Part shown: positions 3,018-32,000 of the stretch, piece after piece | Layout: every line of letters begins with the position of its first letter | Position numbering within the stretch: the first letter of the stretch is position 1 | From: an uncultured archaeon | GTDB taxonomy: Archaea > Iainarchaeota > Iainarchaeia > Iainarchaeales > Iainarchaeaceae | Assembly (NCBI GenBank): GCA_964577555.1 | Contig: CAZNZM010000001.1 | Span: 125,842 to 157,841, forward strand | Direction: 5' to 3' | Length of the DNA: 32,000 nucleotides | Made by a program: the position numbers and the translations under genes | Notes under the pieces: model-generated | Database searches by the model: none | Told to the model about the DNA's origin: nothing | What the model saw: only the letters and a program-made list of their open reading frames with translations

Positions 3018-3314
3018 TCAGATTATAAAATTCCGCCAAAAATAAAAATAAATAGCATTTTGTCTTTTCTTGGCTAGCCATTTTTTGAGATGATTGGCAG
3101 ACTGTTTTTCAAGCCAAATTTTGTTTTAGCTAACCGTTTTTTTGAGGGTTTTTTAGGAAATTTGTTTTATTTTTTAGTTTTTTGGGTTTATTTTTGCAAG
3201 CCAATTTAGGCAATTTTATTTTTTAAATTCAAATTGTTTTTTGCTATGGTTTCTTGATTTTTTTAATTTACAACAAACGATAAACCTATTTAATTATAAG
3301 CAAATGAATTTTAT
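3018..3314. repeat. T-rich spacer carrying TTGGC-type core motifs (minor member of the dispersed spacer family)
   Basis: TTGGCTAGCCA at 3070-3080 contains the perfect 10-bp palindrome TGGCTAGCCA. Other cores: TTTTTCAAGCCAAATT (about 3106-3120) and TTTTTGCAAGCCAATTT (3191-3207). The last is the reverse complement of AAATTGGCTTGCAAAAA seen at 11.8 kb and 21.7 kb. Confidence 0.5.
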
Positions 3315-6742: not shown

Positions 6743-7906
6743 ATGAGAAGCGTTTCAATTGTAGGGGTTGGATTGACAGAATTCGGCGAACACTGGGAAA
6801 AAAATTTTAAGGAGTTAGTAGCCGAAGCAGGAATAAAAGCAATTGAAGATTCAGGACTTCACAGAAAGGACATACAAGCTGTTTACGGGGGATGCATGGC
6901 TTCAGGCAGATTCATCGGACAAGAACACATTGGAGCACTTATAGCAGACCAACTCGGACTAAATCCGATAGCTTCAACAAGAGTTGAAGCGGCATGCGCT
7001 TCCGGTGGAGTAGCATTGAGAAACGGATATTTGGCTGTTGCATCAGGAATTTACGATGTAATAGCGGTTGGCGGAGTAGAAAAAATGACAGAAGTAAGCA
7101 CTGAAGATGCTGGATTTGCACTTGGAGGCGCTGGAGACCAAGAAACTGAACTATTCATGGGAGCAAGCTTTCCAGCACTATACGCTCTAATGGCAAGAGC
7201 ACACATGCACAAATTCGGAACTACAGAAGAACAACTTGCTGCAGTTGCGGTAAAGAACCACAAAAATGCAGAAAACAACCCATATGCACAATTCAGAAAA
7301 GCGATAACAATTGAAGAAGTCATGAATTCAGGCTATGTCGCATCGCCATTGAAATTGCTTGATTGCTCGCCAATAACAGACGGAGCGGCAGCAGTAATAA
7401 TGTGCTCCACAGAATACGCAAAAAAAATGAAGTTGGACAAAGCAGTGGAAATAATTGCATCAACACAAACATCAGATACACTTGCTTTAGCCTCAAGAAA
7501 AAACTTATACGAAATACCTGCAGCAAAACTGGCGGCAGAACAAGCTTACAAACAAGCAGGAATAACAGCAAAAGACATTGACTTTGCTGAAGTACATGAT
7601 TGCTTTACAATAGCTGAAATAATGGCTATAGAAGCACTTGGTTTTTGCAAATTGGGAGAAGGAGGAAAATTCACAGAACAAGGTAACACACAAATTGACG
7701 GACAAATCCCGATAAACACTTCAGGGGGGTTAAAAGGAAAGGGACATCCGGTAGGTGCAACCGGAGTTGCACAAGCAATAGAAGCATACTTGCAATTAAA
7801 CAACATGGCTGGAAAAAGACAAGTAAAAGGAGTAGAAATAGGACTTACACATAACGTTGGCGGTTCCGGAGCCACTGCAACAATCCACATATTCAGGAAG
7901 GCATAA
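6743..7906 (+). CDS. Acetyl-CoA acetyltransferase (thiolase)
   Basis: 387 aa. VEAACASGG active-site Cys motif, DCSPITDGAAAV, HDCFTIAE, SGGLKGKGHPVGATG. Abuts the preceding stop (TAAATG). Confidence 0.85.
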   Translation: MRSVSIVGVGLTEFGEHWEKNFKELVAEAGIKAIEDSGLHRKDIQAVYGGCMASGRFIGQEHIGALIADQLGLNPIASTRVEAACASGGVALRNGYLAVASGIYDVIAVGGVEKMTEVSTEDAGFALGGAGDQETELFMGASFPALYALMARAHMHKFGTTEEQLAAVAVKNHKNAENNPYAQFRKAITIEEVMNSGYVASPLKLLDCSPITDGAAAVIMCSTEYAKKMKLDKAVEIIASTQTSDTLALASRKNLYEIPAAKLAAEQAYKQAGITAKDIDFAEVHDCFTIAEIMAIEALGFCKLGEGGKFTEQGNTQIDGQIPINTSGGLKGKGHPVGATGVAQAIEAYLQLNNMAGKRQVKGVEIGLTHNVGGSGATATIHIFRKA

Positions 7907-10774: not shown

Positions 10775-11587
10775 ATGAAAAATGAAAAAAATTTGTATAT
10801 AATAAAACTTGGCGGCTCGGTAATAACTGAAAAAAAAACAGGCAAATTCATAATAAAAAAGGAAAAAATTGCGAAAATTGCAAAAGAAATAAAAAAAGCC
10901 CAAAAAAAGAAAAAATTCCAATTAATAATAGTACACGGAGCAGGCCCTTTCGGGCATAAAATAGTTTCAGAATATGGAATCTCAAACGGAGTAAAAACTA
11001 AAAAACAATTTGAAGGATTCAAAAAAACAAAAGAATCAATGAGGCGACTATGTAAGCAAATAATCAAAATACTGAAAAAAAACGGAATAAAAGCAACTCC
11101 GGCGCAAGACAAAGCAAACATAATTCAACATAACAAGAAAATTGTTAAACTGAATCTTGAAGGAATAAAAAAAATCTTGAAAACGGAAAAAGTCCCCATA
11201 CTCCACGGAGACATGGTAAAAGACACTGCAATCGGAGCATCGGTAGTAAGCGGGGACACTATAATTGCAATTCTTGCAAACAAATTAAATGCAACAAAAG
11301 TTTTTTACGGCACTGATGTAAATGGAATATATAACTCAAATCCAAAAAAAAACAAAAAAGCCAAACTCATAAAAGAAATAAACAACAGCAACATAAAAAA
11401 AGTCTTGAAAATGACAACAGGGGCAAACACAATTGATGTAACTGGAGGAATGAAAGGAAAATTAGAAGAAATAAGAAAAAACATAAAAGGCATAGAGTGT
11501 TTTGTATTCAACCTTCAAAATGAAAAAAACATTAATAAACTATTGTTTGGAAAAAAAACCAATTGCACAAAAATAATATTCAACTAA
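10775..11587 (+). CDS. Isopentenyl phosphate kinase (amino-acid-kinase fold)
   Basis: LYIIKLGGSVITEK, IIVHGAGPFGH, SGDTI, GTDVNGIY and VTGGMKGK motifs. The track starts at TTG 10766; ATG 10775 is more likely. Confidence 0.8.
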   Translation: MKNEKNLYIIKLGGSVITEKKTGKFIIKKEKIAKIAKEIKKAQKKKKFQLIIVHGAGPFGHKIVSEYGISNGVKTKKQFEGFKKTKESMRRLCKQIIKILKKNGIKATPAQDKANIIQHNKKIVKLNLEGIKKILKTEKVPILHGDMVKDTAIGASVVSGDTIIAILANKLNATKVFYGTDVNGIYNSNPKKNKKAKLIKEINNSNIKKVLKMTTGANTIDVTGGMKGKLEEIRKNIKGIECFVFNLQNEKNINKLLFGKKTNCTKIIFN

Positions 11588-12298
11588 ATTCAACATAAAC
11601 AAAAAATTGGCTAAAAAAATAAAAAATTAAAAAAAATAAGAAAAACACCTTAAAAAGAACTAAAAAATAAGCATAGGTAGATCGCAAAAAAAAAGAAAAT
11701 TCAATTAAAAAACAAAAAAATAATGTCAAAAAAAACAACACACAAAAACAAAAAAAACAACTTGACAAAAAAAAGAATTCAAAAAAAAAGAAAAATGACA
11801 AAAAAATTGGCTTGCAAAAATAAATCCAAAAAAACACATAAACAACGCCTAAAATGCAAAAAAAGAGCTGAAAAATAAAAACAAAAAATCAATTAAAAAA
11901 AATAAAATTGTCTAAAAAAAGGCTCACAAAAAAAACAACTTTGACAAAAAAAAATACCAAAAAAACGGCTCGCCAAAAAAACAAAATTAAAAAAATGGCT
12001 TGCAAAAAACAAAACAAAAAAAATGACCAACAAAAAAAATACCAAACAAAAAAATAATTCAAAAAAAATAAATAACAAAAAAAACTTGGCTCGCCAAAAA
12101 AACGGATTGAAAAAAAAACCGCAAAAAAATAGCTCACAAAAAAAACAATTAAAAAAAATAAAATCGACTAAAAAATTGGCCAAAAAATAAATTAATAATT
12201 AAAAAAACTAAAACCAAGATTAACAGAAACAAAAAAACAAGAAACAAGACAAAAATTTTAAATTAAAACTTGGCTAGAAAACTCAGAAAATTACAAAT
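11588..12298. repeat. A-rich (on +) low-complexity spacer with repeated TTGGCTYRC cores and conserved blocks shared with 21.5-22.1 kb
   Basis: 711 bp between convergent genes, almost free of T on +. Cores: TTGGCTTGCAAAAA (11808-11820), GGCTCACAAAAAAAAC (about 11921), CGGCTCGCCAAAAAAA (about 11966), ATGGCTTGCAAAAAAC (about 11996), TTGGCTCGCCAAAAAAA (about 12086), AGCTCACAAAAAAAAC (about 12131), TTGGCCAAAAAA (about 12177). All track ORFs here are Phe- or Lys-rich artefacts. Confidence 0.8.
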
Positions 12299-21499: not shown

Positions 21500-22110
21500 A
21501 AAAACAAGGATAAATTCAATTGCAAGAAAAAATAGTTCAAAATTTGGCAAATAAAATAAAATTGAAAAAAAACGGCTCGCCAAAAAAACAAAATTAAAAA
21601 AATGGCTTGCAAAAAAAACAAACAAAAAAAACGACTTGCAAAAAAATGAAAAAAATAAAAAAACAACTCAAAAAACAAACAACAAAAAAACAACTTGACA
21701 AAAAAAAAGAATTCAAAAAAAAAAAGAAAAATGACAAAAAAATTGGCTTGCAAAACAAATCCAAAAATAAAAAACTTGACCAAAAAAAACAACAAAAACA
21801 AAACTCACAAAAAAATGACCACAAAAAAATCAGCTTGCAAAAAACAAAACAAAAAAAATAAAAAAAAACAAATTTCAAAAAAAACGTCTAACAAAAAAAT
21901 AAAAAAAACACACAAAAAAAATTACCAAAAAAAAACAAACAACAACAAAAAAACTTGACTCAAAAAAAACAAAATTGGCTCGCAAAAAAAACCAAGCCAC
22001 AAAAAAAATAACCCAATTAAAAAAAATACATAGAAACGCTTAAAATACAAAAAAAGAAAAATCACAAAAAAAACAGCTCACAAAAAACACAAAAAAATAA
22101 TTTATTTTTC
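21500..22110. repeat. A-rich (on +) spacer of the dispersed family, upstream of xerA
   Basis: Shares a block of about 51 nt (21565-21615) and a block of about 65 nt (21691-21755) with 11.6-12.3 kb. Additional cores: CGACTTGCAAAAAAA (about 21633), CAGCTTGCAAAAAAC (about 21831), TTGGCTCGCAAAAAAAA (about 21975), CAGCTCACAAAAAAC (about 22074). Confidence 0.8.
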
Positions 22111-22146: not shown

Positions 22147-23025
22147 ATGTTCTTATTTAACATGGACGAAAAAGATCAGGAAGCGATTAAAGAAGCAGAA
22201 TATCCAAAATTTATCATGGAATTCAAACAAGAACTCATAATAGCAGGATTAAGCCCTCGGACGATAAAAATGTATTTGCTTTACATTTCAGATTTTTTTG
22301 AATTTACAAAAAAAGAGCCAAAAGACATAACCAGAAGCGATATTGTCAATTTTTTGGCAAAAATTAAAGAGAGAGGTAATTCAAATGCCACTCTTGCGCT
22401 TTGCCATGCGGCATTTAAATATTTTTTCCAAACGTGGCTGAAAATGAATGTATTAAATGATGTAAAAATTCCTAAAAAAAACAAACACCTGCCTATTGTC
22501 CTTTCTAAAGAGGAAGTTAAACAATTACTCCAAGCAGTAAAACCAGGCAAAAACAGATTGCTTCTTCAATTTATTTATTCGACTGGAACACGAGTAAGCG
22601 AAGCTGTAAATATGAAAGTAGAAGATTTTAATTCCAAAGAAAGAATAGCAAAGGTAAAATCTGGAAAAGGAGACAAAGACAGGATAATAATTCTTTCAAA
22701 AAATTGGTGTTTAATGGCAAAAAAATATTTGGAAAGAAAAAAAGTAAAAAGTCAATTTTTTTTCACTAAAAAGAATGGAAAACCAATAACAGCAACTACA
22801 GTTCAGAGAATAGTAAGATACGCAGCCAAAAAAGCAGGTTTGAACAAGGAAGTAACCCCGCACACTCTCAGGCATAGTTTTGCCACTCATTTGCTTGAGG
22901 CTGGAGAAAACATTAGAAATATACAAGAATTGCTTGGGCATAGCAGTTTAAGCACAACACAAATATACACTCACGTTTCAACAGAACAATTAAAAAAAGT
23001 CAAAAGCCCCCTTGATGAATTATAA
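22147..23025 (+). CDS. xerA: Tyrosine site-specific recombinase, XerA/XerCD-like
   Basis: C-terminal catalytic motifs: TGTRVSEA (Arg I), HTLRHSFATHLLEAGENIRNIQELLGHSSLSTTQIYTHV (H-x-x-R ... Y). An N-terminal SAM-like core-binding domain is present. An alternative start exists at 22162. Confidence 0.85.
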   Translation: MFLFNMDEKDQEAIKEAEYPKFIMEFKQELIIAGLSPRTIKMYLLYISDFFEFTKKEPKDITRSDIVNFLAKIKERGNSNATLALCHAAFKYFFQTWLKMNVLNDVKIPKKNKHLPIVLSKEEVKQLLQAVKPGKNRLLLQFIYSTGTRVSEAVNMKVEDFNSKERIAKVKSGKGDKDRIIILSKNWCLMAKKYLERKKVKSQFFFTKKNGKPITATTVQRIVRYAAKKAGLNKEVTPHTLRHSFATHLLEAGENIRNIQELLGHSSLSTTQIYTHVSTEQLKKVKSPLDEL

Positions 23026-24465: not shown

Positions 24466-24600
24466 TGTTTTCTTTGTTTTAATTATTTTTTGTTTTTGCA
24501 AGCTTGTTTTTTTATTATTTTTTTTAGTCTAAATTTGTTTTTTATGGTTTTATGTTTTTTGCTTTTCAGTGTTTTGTTTTTTGTTGGGCACTCTTTAATT
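24466..24600. repeat. T-rich spacer, minor member of the dispersed family
   Basis: Contains TTTTTGCAAGCTTGTTTTT (about 24500-24518), the reverse complement of the CAGCTTGCAAAAA-type cores, embedded in T-runs. Confidence 0.4.
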
Positions 24601-26318: not shown

Positions 26319-26374
26319 AGGATATTTTTTCCATAGTTGATTTTTTAAATTGATTATTGGGAGAGCTGTTAAGT

Positions 26375-26592
26375 AAACGTCACCTATAACATATGCGATT
26401 TAACGATGTTTTTCGGGCTACCTTTAAAATTATAAATTTCCGAAAAATATGGGTCGAGAGGGTGCAACCCTCGAGCCGTTAAATCGCTGTTCATTTCCCC
26501 TGAATACTTGGAAGGGTTGAGTTTTAGTGCAACGGTCGGCGTAGCAGAAAAACTCAAAGTCGCGAGGGCGCCGAAATTTTTTGCCACCGTAG
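26375..26592. ncRNA. Structured RNA candidate, about 215 nt, unclassified, strand unresolved
   Basis: GC-enriched island in a 425-bp spacer. An 11-bp long-range helix, GCGATTTAACG (26395-26405) with CGTTAAATCGC (26477-26487), encloses two hairpins: TTTTTCGG/CCGAAAAA at 26409-26447 and TCGAG-GGG/CCC-CTCGA at 26454-26474. A 9-bp helix pairs TTGAGTTTT (26517-26525) with AAAACTCAA (26549-26557). Its loop, ACGGTCGGC (26532-26540), is complementary to GCCACCGT (26583-26590). The 67-aa track ORF here is probably spurious. Confidence 0.4.
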
Positions 26593-26742
26593 TTTTTTCT
26601 TAATTTTTATTGTTTTTTTGTTGTTTGTTTTTGTGAGCCAATTTTTATTTTTTTTCAATTTTTTTTGCAGGTCGTTTTTTTTATTGTTTTTTTAATTGAA
26701 ATTTTTTGTTGTGCCACAAATTGTTTTTTTTTTGCATTTTTT
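26593..26742. repeat. T-rich spacer, member of the dispersed family
   Basis: GTTTGTTTTTGTGAGCCAATTTTT (about 26624-26648) is identical to the core of the 67-nt units at 31.7-32.0 kb. Confidence 0.55.
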
Positions 26743-27291
26743 TTATAATTGGTTTTTTGTTTGTGTTTTTTTTATTTTTTTTCCTTTTTCAATTGGTTCT
26801 ATTTCGATTTTTGCTTCTTTGAATTTTTTTTCTAGTTCTTTTCCTTTTTGTAGTCTGTCAAGAAATACTGCTAATGCAGCAATTTCTGAGTGTGGTTGCA
26901 AGGTTATTGATATGTTGTAATCTGCTTGTTTGTATACTTCTGGTTCGACTTTTTGTGAACCTATGATTATTAGTATTTTTTCTTTTTTTGCTATTTCGTT
27001 TTCTATTTTTTGTGTCGGTATTCCATACATTGTGAGGTGTACTATGGTGTATCCTTCTTGTTTGTAGTGTTCCATTCTTTTTTTCCAATTGTCGTGGAAT
27101 TCTATTTTTGTTTCGTTTCCCCATTTTTCGTTTATTTTTTTTAAGGTAGTTTCTATTTTTTTGTCATATTCCCCTATTATTTCTATTTTTTCTGCTCCAA
27201 AAGCTCTTGCGACGAGGCAGCAATGGCTTGTTACTCTGTAATCTCTTACGTGTCTGTGGCCATATCTTAGGACTATGATGCTTTTTGTCAT
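26743..27291 (-). CDS. tRNA (cytidine56-2'-O)-methyltransferase aTrm56 (SPOUT)
   Basis: IIVLRYGHRHVRDYRVTSHCCLVARAFGA, VHLTMYG and ADYNISITLQPHSEIAALAVFLDRL closely parallel Pyrococcus aTrm56. ATG 27291 (MTKSIIVL) is preferred to the track start at 27315. Confidence 0.85.
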   Translation of the reverse strand: MTKSIIVLRYGHRHVRDYRVTSHCCLVARAFGAEKIEIIGEYDKKIETTLKKINEKWGNETKIEFHDNWKKRMEHYKQEGYTIVHLTMYGIPTQKIENEIAKKEKILIIIGSQKVEPEVYKQADYNISITLQPHSEIAALAVFLDRLQKGKELEKKFKEAKIEIEPIEKGKKIKKTQTKNQL

Positions 27292-28695: not shown

Positions 28696-28843
28696 GGGCC
28701 CGTAGCTCAGCCTGGTAGAGCACTTGCCTTTTAGCCCTTTCTTTTTTCATGGGAAAAGCGTTTTTTTGCGTTTTTCTTTTTTTGTTTGGGAAAAGTTTTG
28801 GGAGGCTAGCAAGGTGTCCCGGGTTCAAATCCCGGCGGGCTCG
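28696..28843 (+). tRNA. tRNA-Lys(UUU) with a 74-nt intron at 37/38 (intron 28734-28807)
   Basis: GGGCCCG-TA-GCTC-AGCCTGGTA-GAGC-A-CTTGC-CTTTTA | intron | A-GCAAG-GTGTC-CCGGG-TTCAAAT-CCCGG-CGGGCTC-G. Nt 32-35 (CTTT) can pair with GAGG just before a 3-nt CTA bulge, giving a BHB-like motif. Confidence 0.8.
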
Positions 28844-28870
28844 TAGTTTTTGTTTTGCAGTGGTGTTTTG

Positions 28871-31192
28871 ATGTCTGGTGTTGTTCAGGAAAATGTTGTT
28901 AAGGAGCATTGGCCTGTTCATGTTGCTAAGAAGATAATTGAGTTTAAGGGGGATTTGCCTGTTTATACTATTGCTGCAGGTATTACTCCTAGTGGTGTTG
29001 TTCATATTGGTAATTTTAGGGAGATAATGACTGTTCATTTGGTAGGAGTTGCTTTGCGTAAGCTTGGTAAGAATGTTAGGTTTATTTATTCTTGGGATGA
29101 TTATGATGTTTTTAGGAAGATTCCTAATAATTTTCCAAATAAGGAGTTGCTTGAAAAGTATTTGAGGCAGCCTATTGTTGATGTGCCTGATCCTTTTGGT
29201 TGTCATTCTAATTATGCGGAGCATAATGAAAAGGTTCTTGAGGAGGAACTTCCTTCGATGGGTATTTTTCCTGAGTTTATTTATCAGTCTAAAAAGTATC
29301 GTTCTTGTGTTTATGCTGAAGGCATGAAAAAGGCTCTTCTTAACAAGGATAAGATTAAGGTTATTCTTGATAAGTGGCGTGCTGATGATTTGGAGGAAAA
29401 TTGGAATCCTGTTAGGGTTTTTTGTGAGAGGTGTAATACTGATAGGACTAAGGTTGAGGGTTATGATGGTGCTTATTCTTTGACTTATTCTTGTGAGTGT
29501 GGGTTTAGGGATACTTTTGATTTTAGAAAGAAGGGTATTGCAAAGTTGCAGTGGCGTGTTGATTGGCCTATGCGTTGGGATTTTGAGAAAGTCAAGTTTG
29601 AACCTTCTGGGAAGGAGCATTCTTCTGAGGGGGGTAGTAATACTACTGCTAATGAGATAGTCAGGGAGGTTTATGGTTATGAGCCTCCTTTTCATATTAT
29701 GTATGAGTTTATTTCTATTAAGGGAACTGGCGGTAAGATGTCTAGTTCTAAGGGTAATACTATTGATTTGAAGGAGATGAAGTCTGTTTATGAGCCGTGT
29801 GTGATAAAGTATATTTTTGTTAGGCCTATTCCTTCAAAGTCTTTTGAGGTTTCTTTTGATGGTGATGTTATTGCTATTTATGATTCTTTTGATCGTTTGG
29901 AGCGTGTTTATTTTGGTTTGGAGCCTTCTGATAAGGAGAATACTATTGAGCAGTTGAAATCTATTTATGAATTTAGTGCTGTTGAGATTCCAGCATCCAT
30001 GCCTTTTCAACCTGGTTTTAGGCATATTACTACTATTCTTCAATTGAATTTGTTTGATGAAGCCAAGACTTATGATTATTTTAAGAGTGGTGTGAAAACT
30101 TCTTTTGATGATGTTCGTCTTAAGACTAGGATTTCTTGTGCGAAGCATTGGCTTTTGAATTATGCGCCTGATCAGTTTGTTTTTAGGGTTCAGGACAGGG
30201 CTTCTGATTCTGCTTTGCGGATGCCTGTTTTGCACAAGTCAGCTCTTAGGGAGTTTTCTGATTTGTTGTTTGATGGGATGTCAGAGAATGAGATTGGCGA
30301 GGTGTTCAAAAAGGTTGCAGAGTCGAATAATATTCCTTTTGTTGATTTGTTTAGGTCTTCTTATTTGCTTTTACTGGGCAAGGAGCGCGGTCCTAAACTT
30401 TTTCAATTGATTGAGAATGTTGGTGTTCAAAAGTTTAAGTCTTTGGTTGTTGATCTTCTTTCAAGAAATGTTGAGGAAAAAAAGCGTGTTTTGTTGCCTG
30501 GGCAAAAAGAGCTTTTGTCAAAGGTTGGTTTTTTGGTTGATGTTGAGGTGAAGTCTGTTTTTCCTTCTGCAAGGGTTGGTGTTTTGTTTGTTGAAGGTAT
30601 TGATAATTCGAGGGATATTTCTGGTGTTTTACCTCTTATTAGGGCAGAGGAGCAGTCTTTTAGGGAGAAGTATTTTGGCAAGGATTTGTCTTCTTTGAGG
30701 GGGATTAAGGTTTGGCGTGAGGCTTATTCTTTGTTCGGAGCCAAGCCAAAGGATTATAAGTCTTCTATTGAGGCTCTTTCTAAGAGGGTTTTGAAGGGAG
30801 AGCAATTGCCCAGTATTAATCCTCTTGTTGATATTTACAATTATATTTCTCTTAAGTATGTTTTGCCTGTTGGTGGTGTTGATTTGTCTAAGGTTGTAGG
30901 GGACATTAGGCTTTGTTTTGCTAATGGTAGTGAGAATTTTGTTAAAATGGGTTCTAGCAATGTTGAGCATCCTGAAAAAGGAGAGGTTATTTACAAGGAT
31001 GATAAAGAGGTTATTTGCAGGCGTTGGAATTGGCGGGAATCTGAAAATACTAAGATAACTTCTTCTACTTCAAGGGCTTTGATTTTTGTTGAGAGTCTTG
31101 TTGTTGATGATTTGCTTGAAGATGCTTTGATTGAGCTTGCCGGCCTTGTTGAAAATTATTTGGGTGGCAGTGTTTTGAAGTTTGTTGTTTAA
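28871..31192 (+). CDS. lysS: Lysyl-tRNA synthetase, class I, fused to a C-terminal B3/4 domain
   Basis: Class I motifs: HIGNFRE (HIGH variant) and GGKMSSSKG (KMSKS variant), with an archaeal LysRS-I-like core of about 540 aa. The C-terminal 230 aa or so (about 30490-31189) carry the B3/4 pattern: VWREAYSLFGAKPKDYKSSIEALSKRVLKGEQLPSINPLVDIYNYISLKYVLPVGGVDL...GEVIYKDDKEVICRRWNWRESENTKIT. ATG 28871 is preferred over TTG 28850. Confidence 0.85.
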   Translation: MSGVVQENVVKEHWPVHVAKKIIEFKGDLPVYTIAAGITPSGVVHIGNFREIMTVHLVGVALRKLGKNVRFIYSWDDYDVFRKIPNNFPNKELLEKYLRQPIVDVPDPFGCHSNYAEHNEKVLEEELPSMGIFPEFIYQSKKYRSCVYAEGMKKALLNKDKIKVILDKWRADDLEENWNPVRVFCERCNTDRTKVEGYDGAYSLTYSCECGFRDTFDFRKKGIAKLQWRVDWPMRWDFEKVKFEPSGKEHSSEGGSNTTANEIVREVYGYEPPFHIMYEFISIKGTGGKMSSSKGNTIDLKEMKSVYEPCVIKYIFVRPIPSKSFEVSFDGDVIAIYDSFDRLERVYFGLEPSDKENTIEQLKSIYEFSAVEIPASMPFQPGFRHITTILQLNLFDEAKTYDYFKSGVKTSFDDVRLKTRISCAKHWLLNYAPDQFVFRVQDRASDSALRMPVLHKSALREFSDLLFDGMSENEIGEVFKKVAESNNIPFVDLFRSSYLLLLGKERGPKLFQLIENVGVQKFKSLVVDLLSRNVEEKKRVLLPGQKELLSKVGFLVDVEVKSVFPSARVGVLFVEGIDNSRDISGVLPLIRAEEQSFREKYFGKDLSSLRGIKVWREAYSLFGAKPKDYKSSIEALSKRVLKGEQLPSINPLVDIYNYISLKYVLPVGGVDLSKVVGDIRLCFANGSENFVKMGSSNVEHPEKGEVIYKDDKEVICRRWNWRESENTKITSSTSRALIFVESLVVDDLLEDALIELAGLVENYLGGSVLKFVV

Positions 31193-31251: not shown

Positions 31252-31389
31252 GGGCCCGTAGCTCAGGCTGGTAGAGCACTTGATTCTTTAAAGTTTAATG
31301 CTTTTGGAAGGTGTGGCTCTTATGGTTTTTTACCAGTCTGGTTGGCCGGAATTACCAAGGTGTCGCGGGTTCAAATCCCGCCGGGCTCG
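31252..31389 (+). tRNA. tRNA-Lys(CUU) candidate with a 64-nt intron (about 31290-31353)
   Basis: The body is nearly identical to tRNA-Lys(UUU): GGGCCCG-TA-GCTC-AGGCTGGTA-GAGC-A-CTTGA-TTCTTT | intron | A-CCAAG-GTGTC-GCGGG-TTCAAAT-CCCGC-CGGGCTC-G. TTCT pairs with GGAA before a TTA bulge. Anomalies: A31/C39 mismatch and U at position 37. Confidence 0.6.
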
Positions 31390-31485: not shown

Positions 31486-31646
31486 GAGGAAGTAGCTCAG
31501 CCTGGGAGAGCACTCGTCAGGCACAAGCGGCTTTTTAGTGGCTTGTTTGGCCTGGGTGAAGCTGAAGATGGTACAACGTTGGTTGTTTTATCTTCGTTGC
31601 TCCCTTGGTTACCGGGGTGTCGCGGGTTCAAATCCCGCCTTCCTCA
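31486..31646 (+). tRNA. tRNA-Phe(GAA) candidate with two introns (about 31513-31550 at 26/27 and 31562-31610 at 37/38)
   Basis: Perfect acceptor GAGGAAG/CTTCCTC plus A73. D arm GCTC-AGCCTGGGA-GAGC, T arm GCGGG-TTCAAAT-CCCGC. The only 5-bp partner for the 3' anticodon-stem strand CCGGG (31612-31616) is CCTGG at 31551-31555. That partner is followed by GTGAAG, which with A31611 gives the loop GUGAAGA. Confidence 0.5.
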
Positions 31647-32000
31647 TTTTTTGAATTTTATTTTGTCTAGTTTGTTTTTTTGTTGTATTTTTTTGTTTTT
31701 TTTTAGCCGAGTTTTTTTTGTCAAGTTGTTTGTTTTTGTGAGCCAATTTTTTATCATTTTTCTTTTTTTTTTGAATTCTTTTTTTTGTCAAGTTGTTTGT
31801 TTTTGTGAGCCAATTTTTTGTCATTTTTCTTTTTTTTGAATTCTTTTTTTTTGTCAATTATTTTTTTTAATTGAATTTTGTTTTTTTTTGCAAGCCACTT
31901 TTTTTTAATTTTTTATTGTTTTTTGTTTTTTTTGATTTGTTTATTTTTTTGTGAGCCAATTTTTTATCATTTTTCTTTTTTTTTTGAATTCTTTTTTTTG
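31647..32000. repeat. T-rich (on +) spacer with tandem 67-nt units of the dispersed family, running off the window
   Basis: The unit TTTTGTGAGCCAATTTTTT(A/G)TCATTTTTCTTTTTTTT(TT)GAATTCTTTTTTTTGTCAAGTTGTTTG occurs at about 31733-31799, at about 31800-31858, and again from about 31948 to the window end. A partial copy lies at 31711-31732. TTTTTGCAAGCCAC is at about 31886. Confidence 0.8.

Follow-up and report, generated by a model that had tools for sequence, protein, structure and literature searches.

Polar A-run arrays between the genes of an uncultured Iainarchaeota archaeon: a candidate satellite-like family of intergenic repeats

What are the long tracts of A-runs that separate some of the genes of an uncultured archaeon of the Iainarchaeota? 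The question is raised by a 711-nt tract at positions 11588-12298 of the window, the whole stretch of 32,000 nt analysed here, which belongs to the 84-kb metagenomic contig Ga0394875_0000366 (JGI 3300037501). A preliminary description of the window, made from its letters only, had listed six intergenic regions of this kind; all six proved to be arrays of A-runs, or of T-runs when inverted, and the intergenic DNA elsewhere in the window has A and T mixed in the usual way. The window was joined to overlapping contigs of the same population, giving 46 kb in which eight arrays, A0 to A7, account for 3.26 kb (7%); arrays beyond the window are given in window numbering. Our comparisons cover these ~46 kb and ~36 kb of the genome of a sister species, drawn from JGI 3300010938, 3300035183 and 3300036768 and two Sequence Read Archive (SRA) runs. 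On balance, we regard the arrays as probably a lineage-restricted, non-coding, satellite-like mosaic family of intergenic repeats in one Iainarchaeota genus, best read as primarily self-perpetuating repeat DNA that is tolerated between genes.

The lysyl-tRNA synthetase (LysRS) of the window shares 62-67% identity with its counterparts in Candidatus Iainarchaeum andersonii and related uncultured archaea, a similarity that places the host in the Iainarchaeota/Diapherotrites, within the DPANN archaea. DPANN archaea are regarded as extremely streamlined. The genome has a GC content of 34% and encodes the archaeal markers TFE-alpha, aTrm56, a class I LysRS and a mevalonate operon, as well as tRNAs with long introns. 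The arrays, which range from 130 to 710 bases (0.13-0.7 kb), lie among ordinary housekeeping genes.

Runs, oriented words and shared blocks

The arrays are made of runs of five to nine A, with a mode at 7-8, that alternate with cores mostly of 4-9 nt. One strand is ~63-64% A, and this A-rich strand also carries more C than G. Run lengths are bimodal, with a geometric decay followed by a second mode at 7-8, so that 57 runs of eight A are found where ~8 are expected. Very few runs in the arrays are longer than nine; the same ceiling holds in coding DNA, where runs of seven to nine A are common too, and it therefore applies to the whole genome and is not peculiar to the arrays. The spacing between the starts of successive runs is broad, about 9-17 nt, with a weak quasi-period near 15 nt and no power at the 10-11 bp helical repeat; lacking 10.5-bp phasing, the arrays are not intrinsically curved, phased A-tract DNA. 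The polarity of the arrays is strict. Runs of at least five T (T5 or longer) number 13-21 per 300 nt on one strand, and none is present on the other across 460-725 nt.

The dominant core between the runs, YGGCTYRC, lacks symmetry and always reads along the A-rich strand; other oriented words (CTTGAC, GAATTC and TGAC) accompany it. In the window, TTGGCTYRC has 12 matches against 1.18 expected (shuffle maximum, 5); nine of the 12 lie inside arrays, and all nine are on the A-rich strand. The shorter GGCTYRC is found 26 times against 7.9 expected, with 11 of the 26 in the 29 kb outside the arrays, which is chance level. GGCT itself occurs 28 times in the arrays of the window species, against 0.35 expected from composition. 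The comparison with shuffled sequence, which the preliminary description had named as a possible refutation, came out in favour of the cores. Its suggestion that the cores are palindromic half-sites for a dimeric protein fared worse: the count of palindromic 6-mers is 44, with 33 ± 5 expected (22 and 14.5 ± 3.5 for the GC-containing subset), a non-significant excess that arises because copies of the same unit are repeated, and the dominant core is itself asymmetric and oriented. Cores are spaced irregularly, at 30-110 nt, without helical phasing.

The order of the words is conserved as well as the words themselves (in the formulae that follow, A7 and the like denote runs of A, not arrays). Block B, A7-CGGCTCGCC-A7-CAAAATT-A7-TGGCTTGC-A6, is an exact 51-nt repeat at 11959-12009 (+) in A2 and 21566-21616 (+) in A3; it had been noted beforehand as a shared block of about 51 nt, with coordinates 1-2 nt off. 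A token-shuffle control, which kept the same cores and A-runs, gave longest shared strings with a mean of 24 nt and a maximum of 31 nt. A second block of ~65 nt, unit U, reads CAACTTGAC-A8-GAATTC-A9-GAAAAATGAC-A7-TTGGCTTGC at 11757-11820 (+) in A2 and recurs at 21691-21755 (+) in A3, where its A-runs are 1 and 2 nt longer. The unit is also found three times inverted at 31.7-32.0 kb, in A6: two copies are in tandem within 31690-31868 (-), where a 67-nt period repeats 2.7 times with 87% matches and the core TTGGCTCAC, also present in array A5, replaces TTGGCTTGC, and a further composite motif of the unit lies at 31954-31991 (-). Five occurrences of the composite GAATTC-An-GAAAAATGAY-An-TTGGCT were counted where none is expected. 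The earlier statements that the two direct copies of this block differ only in the lengths of their A-runs, and that a variant of it is inverted and tandem near the end of the window, were both borne out.

In general, copies of the shared blocks differ essentially only by ±1-2 nt in their A-runs, and they are consequently frameshifted and cannot share a reading frame. With A-runs collapsed, A0, A2, A3 and A6 share blocks 58-116 nt long that are 89-97% identical, and shorter shared blocks extend to A1, A5 and A7; a 32-nt collapsed block of A1 matches A2 at 97%. Block order is not fixed, with unit U preceding block B in A2 and following it in A3. Outside A6, Tandem Repeats Finder (TRF) gives weak arrays only, with periods of 28-59 nt and 62-80% matches. 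Conserved words and word order thus exceed the shuffle controls, in line with the view that the arrays are not simple low-complexity sequence.

The arrays are reproduced by independent assemblies. A1 and A2 are identical, homopolymer lengths included, in contigs from JGI 3300043177, JGI 3300043267 and Logan SRR12686701, and the run counts of A3-A5 are equal in those contigs; the assemblies disagree solely over the terminal ~40 nt of one contig (L003). These contigs come from three other samples and argue against the assembly artefact for which the preliminary description had allowed. An origin of the arrays as low-complexity noise or through faulty assembly is, in our view, extremely improbable. 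The genome is indeed AT-rich and its coding DNA does contain runs of seven to nine A, but the shuffle controls on motifs, composite and blocks reject chance, four independent assemblies are concordant base for base, the other intergenic regions of the window are of ordinary composition, and a second species, recovered from other samples, carries orthologous arrays. Most public contigs of this genus end inside arrays (L002, L003, L030, L031, L113 and L117-L121), as expected for real dispersed repeats. The arrays are evidently a main cause of fragmented metagenome-assembled genomes in this genus, which gives them a practical importance for work on the lineage.

Arrays in the sister species and in more distant relatives

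The sister species is close to the window species, with 90% amino-acid identity in isopentenyl phosphate kinase (IPK), 94% in seryl-tRNA synthetase (SerRS) and 87-90% identity in flanking coding DNA. It carries arrays at all seven comparable positions (A1-A7), the small array at A4 among them, and their orientation is unchanged. The base composition of these arrays is similar, their second A-run mode lies at 6-8, and GGCT occurs in them 25 times against 0.35 expected; GGCT-containing cores are the only word family clearly common to both species. The comparison of orthologous spacers, which had been proposed as a check, thus revealed conserved places filled with sequence that has almost completely changed. 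Orthologous arrays align at the low-complexity level only (66-71%), and the spacer orthologous to A2 measures 333 nt in the sister species against 711 nt in the window species.

The best matches between non-orthologous arrays reach 95-139 bits within the window species and 123-163 bits within the sister species, whereas no pair of arrays from different species exceeds 54 bits, orthologous pairs included. Each species carries its own set of shared blocks, and the 51-nt block is missing from the sister species. Because arrays are more alike within a genome than between species, they have evolved in concert, or have spread recently in each genome. At array A5 of the sister species, contig L118 spans an array of 265 nt and contig L117 carries at least 531 nt, ending inside the array; these are the only two sister contigs that reach past the first ~90 nt of this array, and they diverge there. 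The extra material in L117 lies between repeated CGGCTTGC-A5-CAAACAAC words (A5 here being a run), which suggests a length polymorphism by repeat-mediated expansion or contraction, with the proviso that one of the two contigs ends in the array.

In more distant relatives the same spacers are tiny. The IPK-NUDIX spacer is 5 nt long and without an array in a relative with 67% IPK identity, and in a relative with 74% SerRS identity the TFE-aTrm56 spacer (18 nt) and the polyprenyl synthase-KaiC spacer (34 nt) hold no arrays either. None of 80 metagenomic loci with a SerRS identity of 72% or less contained such arrays. The spacers of 5-34 nt identify the arrays as a recent, genus-level expansion of almost non-existent intergenic DNA. 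It would follow that the arrays arose recently and kept their places through speciation, yet replaced their sequence by exchange within each genome. A scan of public metagenomes for the 36-40-nt composite motif returned nothing, in a collection that evidently lacks the source sample. A scan of viral sequences for the unit was likewise negative, and the shorter core pattern gave two chance matches there, in unrelated viral contigs of 45-49% GC.

One analogue was seen elsewhere in the phylum. In L008 (uncultured archaeon ERP125453_co1_517, 49% GC), a 120-nt tract at 6748-6867, between a tRNA and the LysRS gene and upstream of the latter, comprises nine runs of five to seven A and the GC-rich cores GCTTGGCC, CGCGAGCC and TGCCCGCCG, and its A-rich strand is the sense one. 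The tract suggests that the architecture of the arrays can arise independently elsewhere in the phylum. Three further loci considered as comparable arrays of other lineages (L087, L094 and L068) were judged not to be comparable.

Gene setting varies between the arrays of the window species. Both arrays outside the window, A0 (-5570 to -5170; A-rich strand +) and A7 (35528-35781; A-rich strand -), lie in convergent spacers. A1 (3018-3314; A-rich strand -) is the most degenerate array, with 47% A; it occupies the divergent spacer between a gene for 243 amino acids (aa; -) and the NAD kinase gene (+), and holds TTGGCTTGC (3196-3204, -) and TGGCTAGCCA. A2, with its A-rich strand on plus and 38 A-runs of six or more, separates the convergent IPK (+) and NUDIX (-) genes; reading on from the IPK stop codon, one meets no T5 until 725 nt later, precisely where the array ends on its far side. 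A3 (21500-22110; A-rich strand +; 35 A-runs of six or more) lies between divergent genes, directly upstream of a gene for an XerC/D-type tyrosine recombinase. The small A4 (24466-24600; A-rich strand -) is flanked by convergent genes of 200 aa (+) and 137 aa (-). A5 (26593-26800; A-rich strand -) follows the aTrm56 gene (-) and overlaps its Lys-rich 3′ end, and A6 (31647-32289; A-rich strand -), which runs past the end of the window at 32000, begins right after an intron-containing tRNA gene (+) and precedes a 732-aa gene (+). Most limits given in the preliminary description stand; those of two arrays were too narrow, since 26593-26742 extends to ~26800 and 31647-32000 continues to ~32289 on the source contig.

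Clusters of runs of six to nine A are also seen in coding DNA, as Lys-rich stretches. One lies at 10830-10915, near the N-terminus of IPK; another, at 26743-26800, encodes the C-terminal tail of aTrm56 and merges into A5, blurring the boundary between array and gene. The XerC/D-type gene (22147-23025, +), whose product has a SAM-like N-terminal domain and a catalytic domain, sits where array polarity flips from A-on-plus to A-on-minus, which may be a coincidence with only eight arrays.

Origin and possible roles of the arrays

Several familiar kinds of element were considered for the arrays and set aside. Public annotation places open reading frames (ORFs) of 51-84 aa in them, without any Pfam hit, and we reject coding because the copies are frameshifted and the ORFs are the poly-Phe or poly-Lys strings expected in T-poor sequence. 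A structured RNA is ruled out because Rfam matched nothing in the arrays, either at the gathering score or at an E of 1 or less, and because the two strands fold no better than shuffled sequence (z-scores of -1.4 and +1.0). The arrays are not CRISPR arrays: neither TRF nor a repeat finder detected a regular identical repeat, and A-run spacing was broad (6-30 nt in this test). The preliminary description had also offered partition- or replication-related sites. Eight arrays in 46 kb are too many for either; moreover, no Orc1/Cdc6 domain was found in the window proteins or in the called genes of the flanks, and no par gene lies nearby. Orientation from A0 to A7 (+ - + + - - - -), which the same description had wished to relate to replication direction, bears no simple relation to it, and switches about as often as chance. 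A2 and A3 are not the attL and attR sites of an island that carries the Xer-type recombinase, because the segment between them carries housekeeping genes (Dus, NAD synthase, HAD hydrolase and tRNA-Gly) that are syntenic in the sister species without the 51-nt block, and because unit U is also in A6. Retroposed tails of A-rich RNAs were rejected too: three of the eight arrays do not follow any gene encoded on their A-rich strand, and tails of this origin would not be expected to hold conserved words.

Comparison with known repeats leaves the arrays without a described class, as had been said of them at the outset; in addition to the negative Rfam result, literature searches found no description of such arrays. 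Like the repetitive extragenic palindromic (REP) sequences and bacterial interspersed mosaic elements (BIMEs) of enterobacteria, they are dispersed and intergenic, often at gene 3′ ends or in convergent spacers, form mosaics of a few short motifs in variable order, are lineage-specific and break short-read assemblies. However, REP units are imperfect, hairpin-forming palindromes, whereas the arrays have neither palindromic units nor a folding signal and are archaeal, strictly one-stranded, up to 700 nt long and punctuated by homopolymers of seven to eight A. The likeness to satellite or minisatellite DNA is closer in evolutionary behaviour: paralogous arrays in one genome are far more alike than orthologous arrays between species, location is kept while sequence turns over, a higher-order unit is tandem in A6 (67 nt × 2.7), and one array locus (A5) may vary in length between samples. 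Unlike satellites, the arrays are mostly shuffled strings of different words rather than regular tandems, and they are short and lie between the housekeeping genes of a very small prokaryotic genome. Because they lack the palindromes and hairpins of REP and BIME and are only partly tandem, we set them apart from described families, as dispersed intergenic repeat DNA that belongs to none of them.

How would such DNA perpetuate itself? The rapid turnover of the arrays could proceed by homopolymer slippage in the A-runs, by tandem duplication of multi-word units and by exchange of blocks between arrays, through ectopic gene conversion or template switching for which the runs of seven to eight A would provide microhomology. 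Slippage, duplication and exchange would together leave arrays alike within a genome and orthologues almost completely diverged. Of the readings that the preliminary description had raised, the slippage-prone selfish or structural element accordingly fits best, given the tandem duplication, the copies that differ by A-run length only, and the contrast between arrays within a genome and their diverged orthologues.

As well as perpetuating themselves, the arrays could affect transcription. In Haloferax, a T5C stretch causes 95% termination in vivo, and multiple consecutive terminators are common in archaea (PMC7237163). Since the archaeal polymerase stops at stretches of T, each array should block transcription one way only, as a strictly polar barrier: a polymerase reading the T-rich strand would meet 13-21 oligo-T signals per 300 nt, and one travelling in the other direction would meet none. 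The arrays resemble archaeal oligo-T terminators in that runs of at least five T lie on the non-template strand directly downstream of genes, with several in a row being common in such terminators (PMC7237163). They differ in having 13-38 T-runs per spacer rather than one to three, in the conserved GC-containing words between the runs, and in that some arrays are divergent or have their A-rich strand as sense and would be unable to terminate the neighbouring gene. The T-side neighbours of A0, A2, A4, A6 and A7 do have runs of T5 or longer on their sense strand, shortly past the end of the gene. Four of these five arrays lie in convergent spacers, where the T-rich strand will face one of the genes in either orientation of the array. 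The comparison does not apply to the divergent A1 and A3, and aTrm56 at A5 lacks such runs. We discarded the avoidance of T-runs as support for termination, because coding DNA has runs of seven or more A and T in a ratio of 69:6 and composition alone predicts ~9:1.

Several points weigh against self-perpetuating DNA with a merely incidental effect on transcription. The orientation of the putative terminators is inconsistent, the A-rich strand of A5 being sense downstream of aTrm56 and A1 and A3 being divergent, so termination cannot be the general reason for the arrays. Seven arrays have been retained with their position, polarity, composition and YGGCT core over ~12% coding divergence; such retention in a streamlined genome exceeds what pure junk would predict, and selection on composition or on the core may lie behind it. 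The GGCT enrichment of both species (28 and 25 against 0.35) could be the sign of a binding site and need not be left over from the unit that was amplified. Transfer between arrays is deduced from the copies rather than directly observed, and the evidence is drawn from the ~46 kb and ~36 kb of the two genomes. We therefore also entertain, as a tentative and rather unlikely reading, that the genus actively maintains polar poly(dA:dT) and YGGCTYRC arrays at fixed intergenic places as boundary elements, selected for composition and core rather than sequence and continuously renewed by exchange between arrays. Such elements would putatively act as one-way transcription insulators, or as histone-free or protein-bound chromatin boundaries.

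Narrower functional readings meet more specific difficulties. Binding of a sequence-specific nucleoid or regulatory protein to YGGCTYRC, with the A-tracts as rigid spacers and with chromosomal domains or gene-end boundaries being organized as a result, would account for GGCT cores that are ~75-fold enriched over composition in both species and are the only words they clearly share, for the invariable placement of TTGGCTYRC in arrays on the A-rich strand and for conserved array positions. We nevertheless think it unlikely: the core is at chance level outside the arrays, its spacing is irregular and unphased, the dimer model fails for want of significantly enriched palindromes, no candidate protein is linked to the arrays, and a core that was simply carried along in an amplified unit would be enriched too. 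Exclusion of archaeal histones by poly(dA:dT) spacers selected for composition, which would serve as nucleosome-free boundaries or insulators, appears decidedly unlikely. The second A-run mode in both species speaks for it, as does conservation of presence, length class and composition while sequence is not conserved, and Diapherotrites are listed among the histone-encoding lineages (PMC6136690). Yet no histone gene was seen within the 46 kb of this genome, close relatives manage with spacers of 5-34 nt, strict one-strandedness of the A-runs would be unneeded, and the run-length ceiling of nine is genome-wide. The poly(dA:dT) tracts of yeast, Plasmodium and Dictyostelium are similarly intergenic A:T homopolymers conserved in composition rather than sequence, but they lack interleaved conserved words and long blocks common to several loci, and the effect of the arrays on histones is putative.

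A third functional reading, which we consider very unlikely, holds that the A-rich strand is transcribed and that the arrays are long A-rich untranslated regions or non-coding RNAs affecting mRNA stability or translation. The A-rich strand is free of oligo-T terminators over its whole length, as illustrated by the 725 nt that separate the IPK stop codon from the first T5, and it lies directly downstream of a gene on the same strand at the convergent A0, A2, A4 and A7 and at A5. However, no gene is placed to read the A-rich strand of A6, there is neither a folding signal nor a match to an RNA family, and the sequence is not conserved between the two species. Self-perpetuating, satellite-like repeat DNA remains our preferred explanation.

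Either outcome would be of general interest. Should the arrays be neutral or selfish, they illustrate clearly that DNA of a prokaryote can evolve in concert in the manner of satellites. Should they be under selection instead, archaea would have a gene-boundary element of a new kind, one that depends on polarity, composition and a short oriented core and not on overall sequence; were the boundary reading true, an archaeal counterpart of eukaryotic poly(dA:dT) boundaries would be combined with satellite-type concerted evolution in a genome of roughly 1 Mb.

Neighbouring features

Between the TFE-alpha gene and A5 lies a GC-richer segment of ~230 nt (26360-26592) with a TATA-like box, TTTAAAATTATAAA, at ~26425-26438. 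About 25 nt past the box begins a stem-rich stretch of ~130 nt that ends in T6. All three assemblies of this population contain the segment, and the sister species (L118) lacks it. Rfam gives no match to it, and its folding z-score is only -1.6; a small gene for a non-coding RNA is one possibility, an inserted element another.

Three tRNA genes with introns, at 28696-28843, 31252-31389 and 31486-31646, were identified with ARAGORN when introns were allowed: Lys(ttt), Glu(ctc) and Pro(tgg), with introns of 74, 46 and 86 nt, respectively. The default tRNA scan recovered none of the three, and Rfam two; A6 begins immediately after the third. The gene between the first two (28850-31192) encodes the class I LysRS fused to a C-terminal B3/4 domain (residues ~622-748), a domain otherwise known from the beta subunit of phenylalanyl-tRNA synthetase (PheRS). 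The fusion is conserved in Iainarchaeota relatives, where matches extend to residue 780 of the query (L004-L008), and is split into two ORFs in one assembly (L032). Lastly, where the window has a single 436-aa gene for HMG-CoA reductase, two ORFs (281 and 157 aa) are predicted in the sister species (L113, 1306-2624), which could reflect a frameshift, a sequencing error or a pseudogene.

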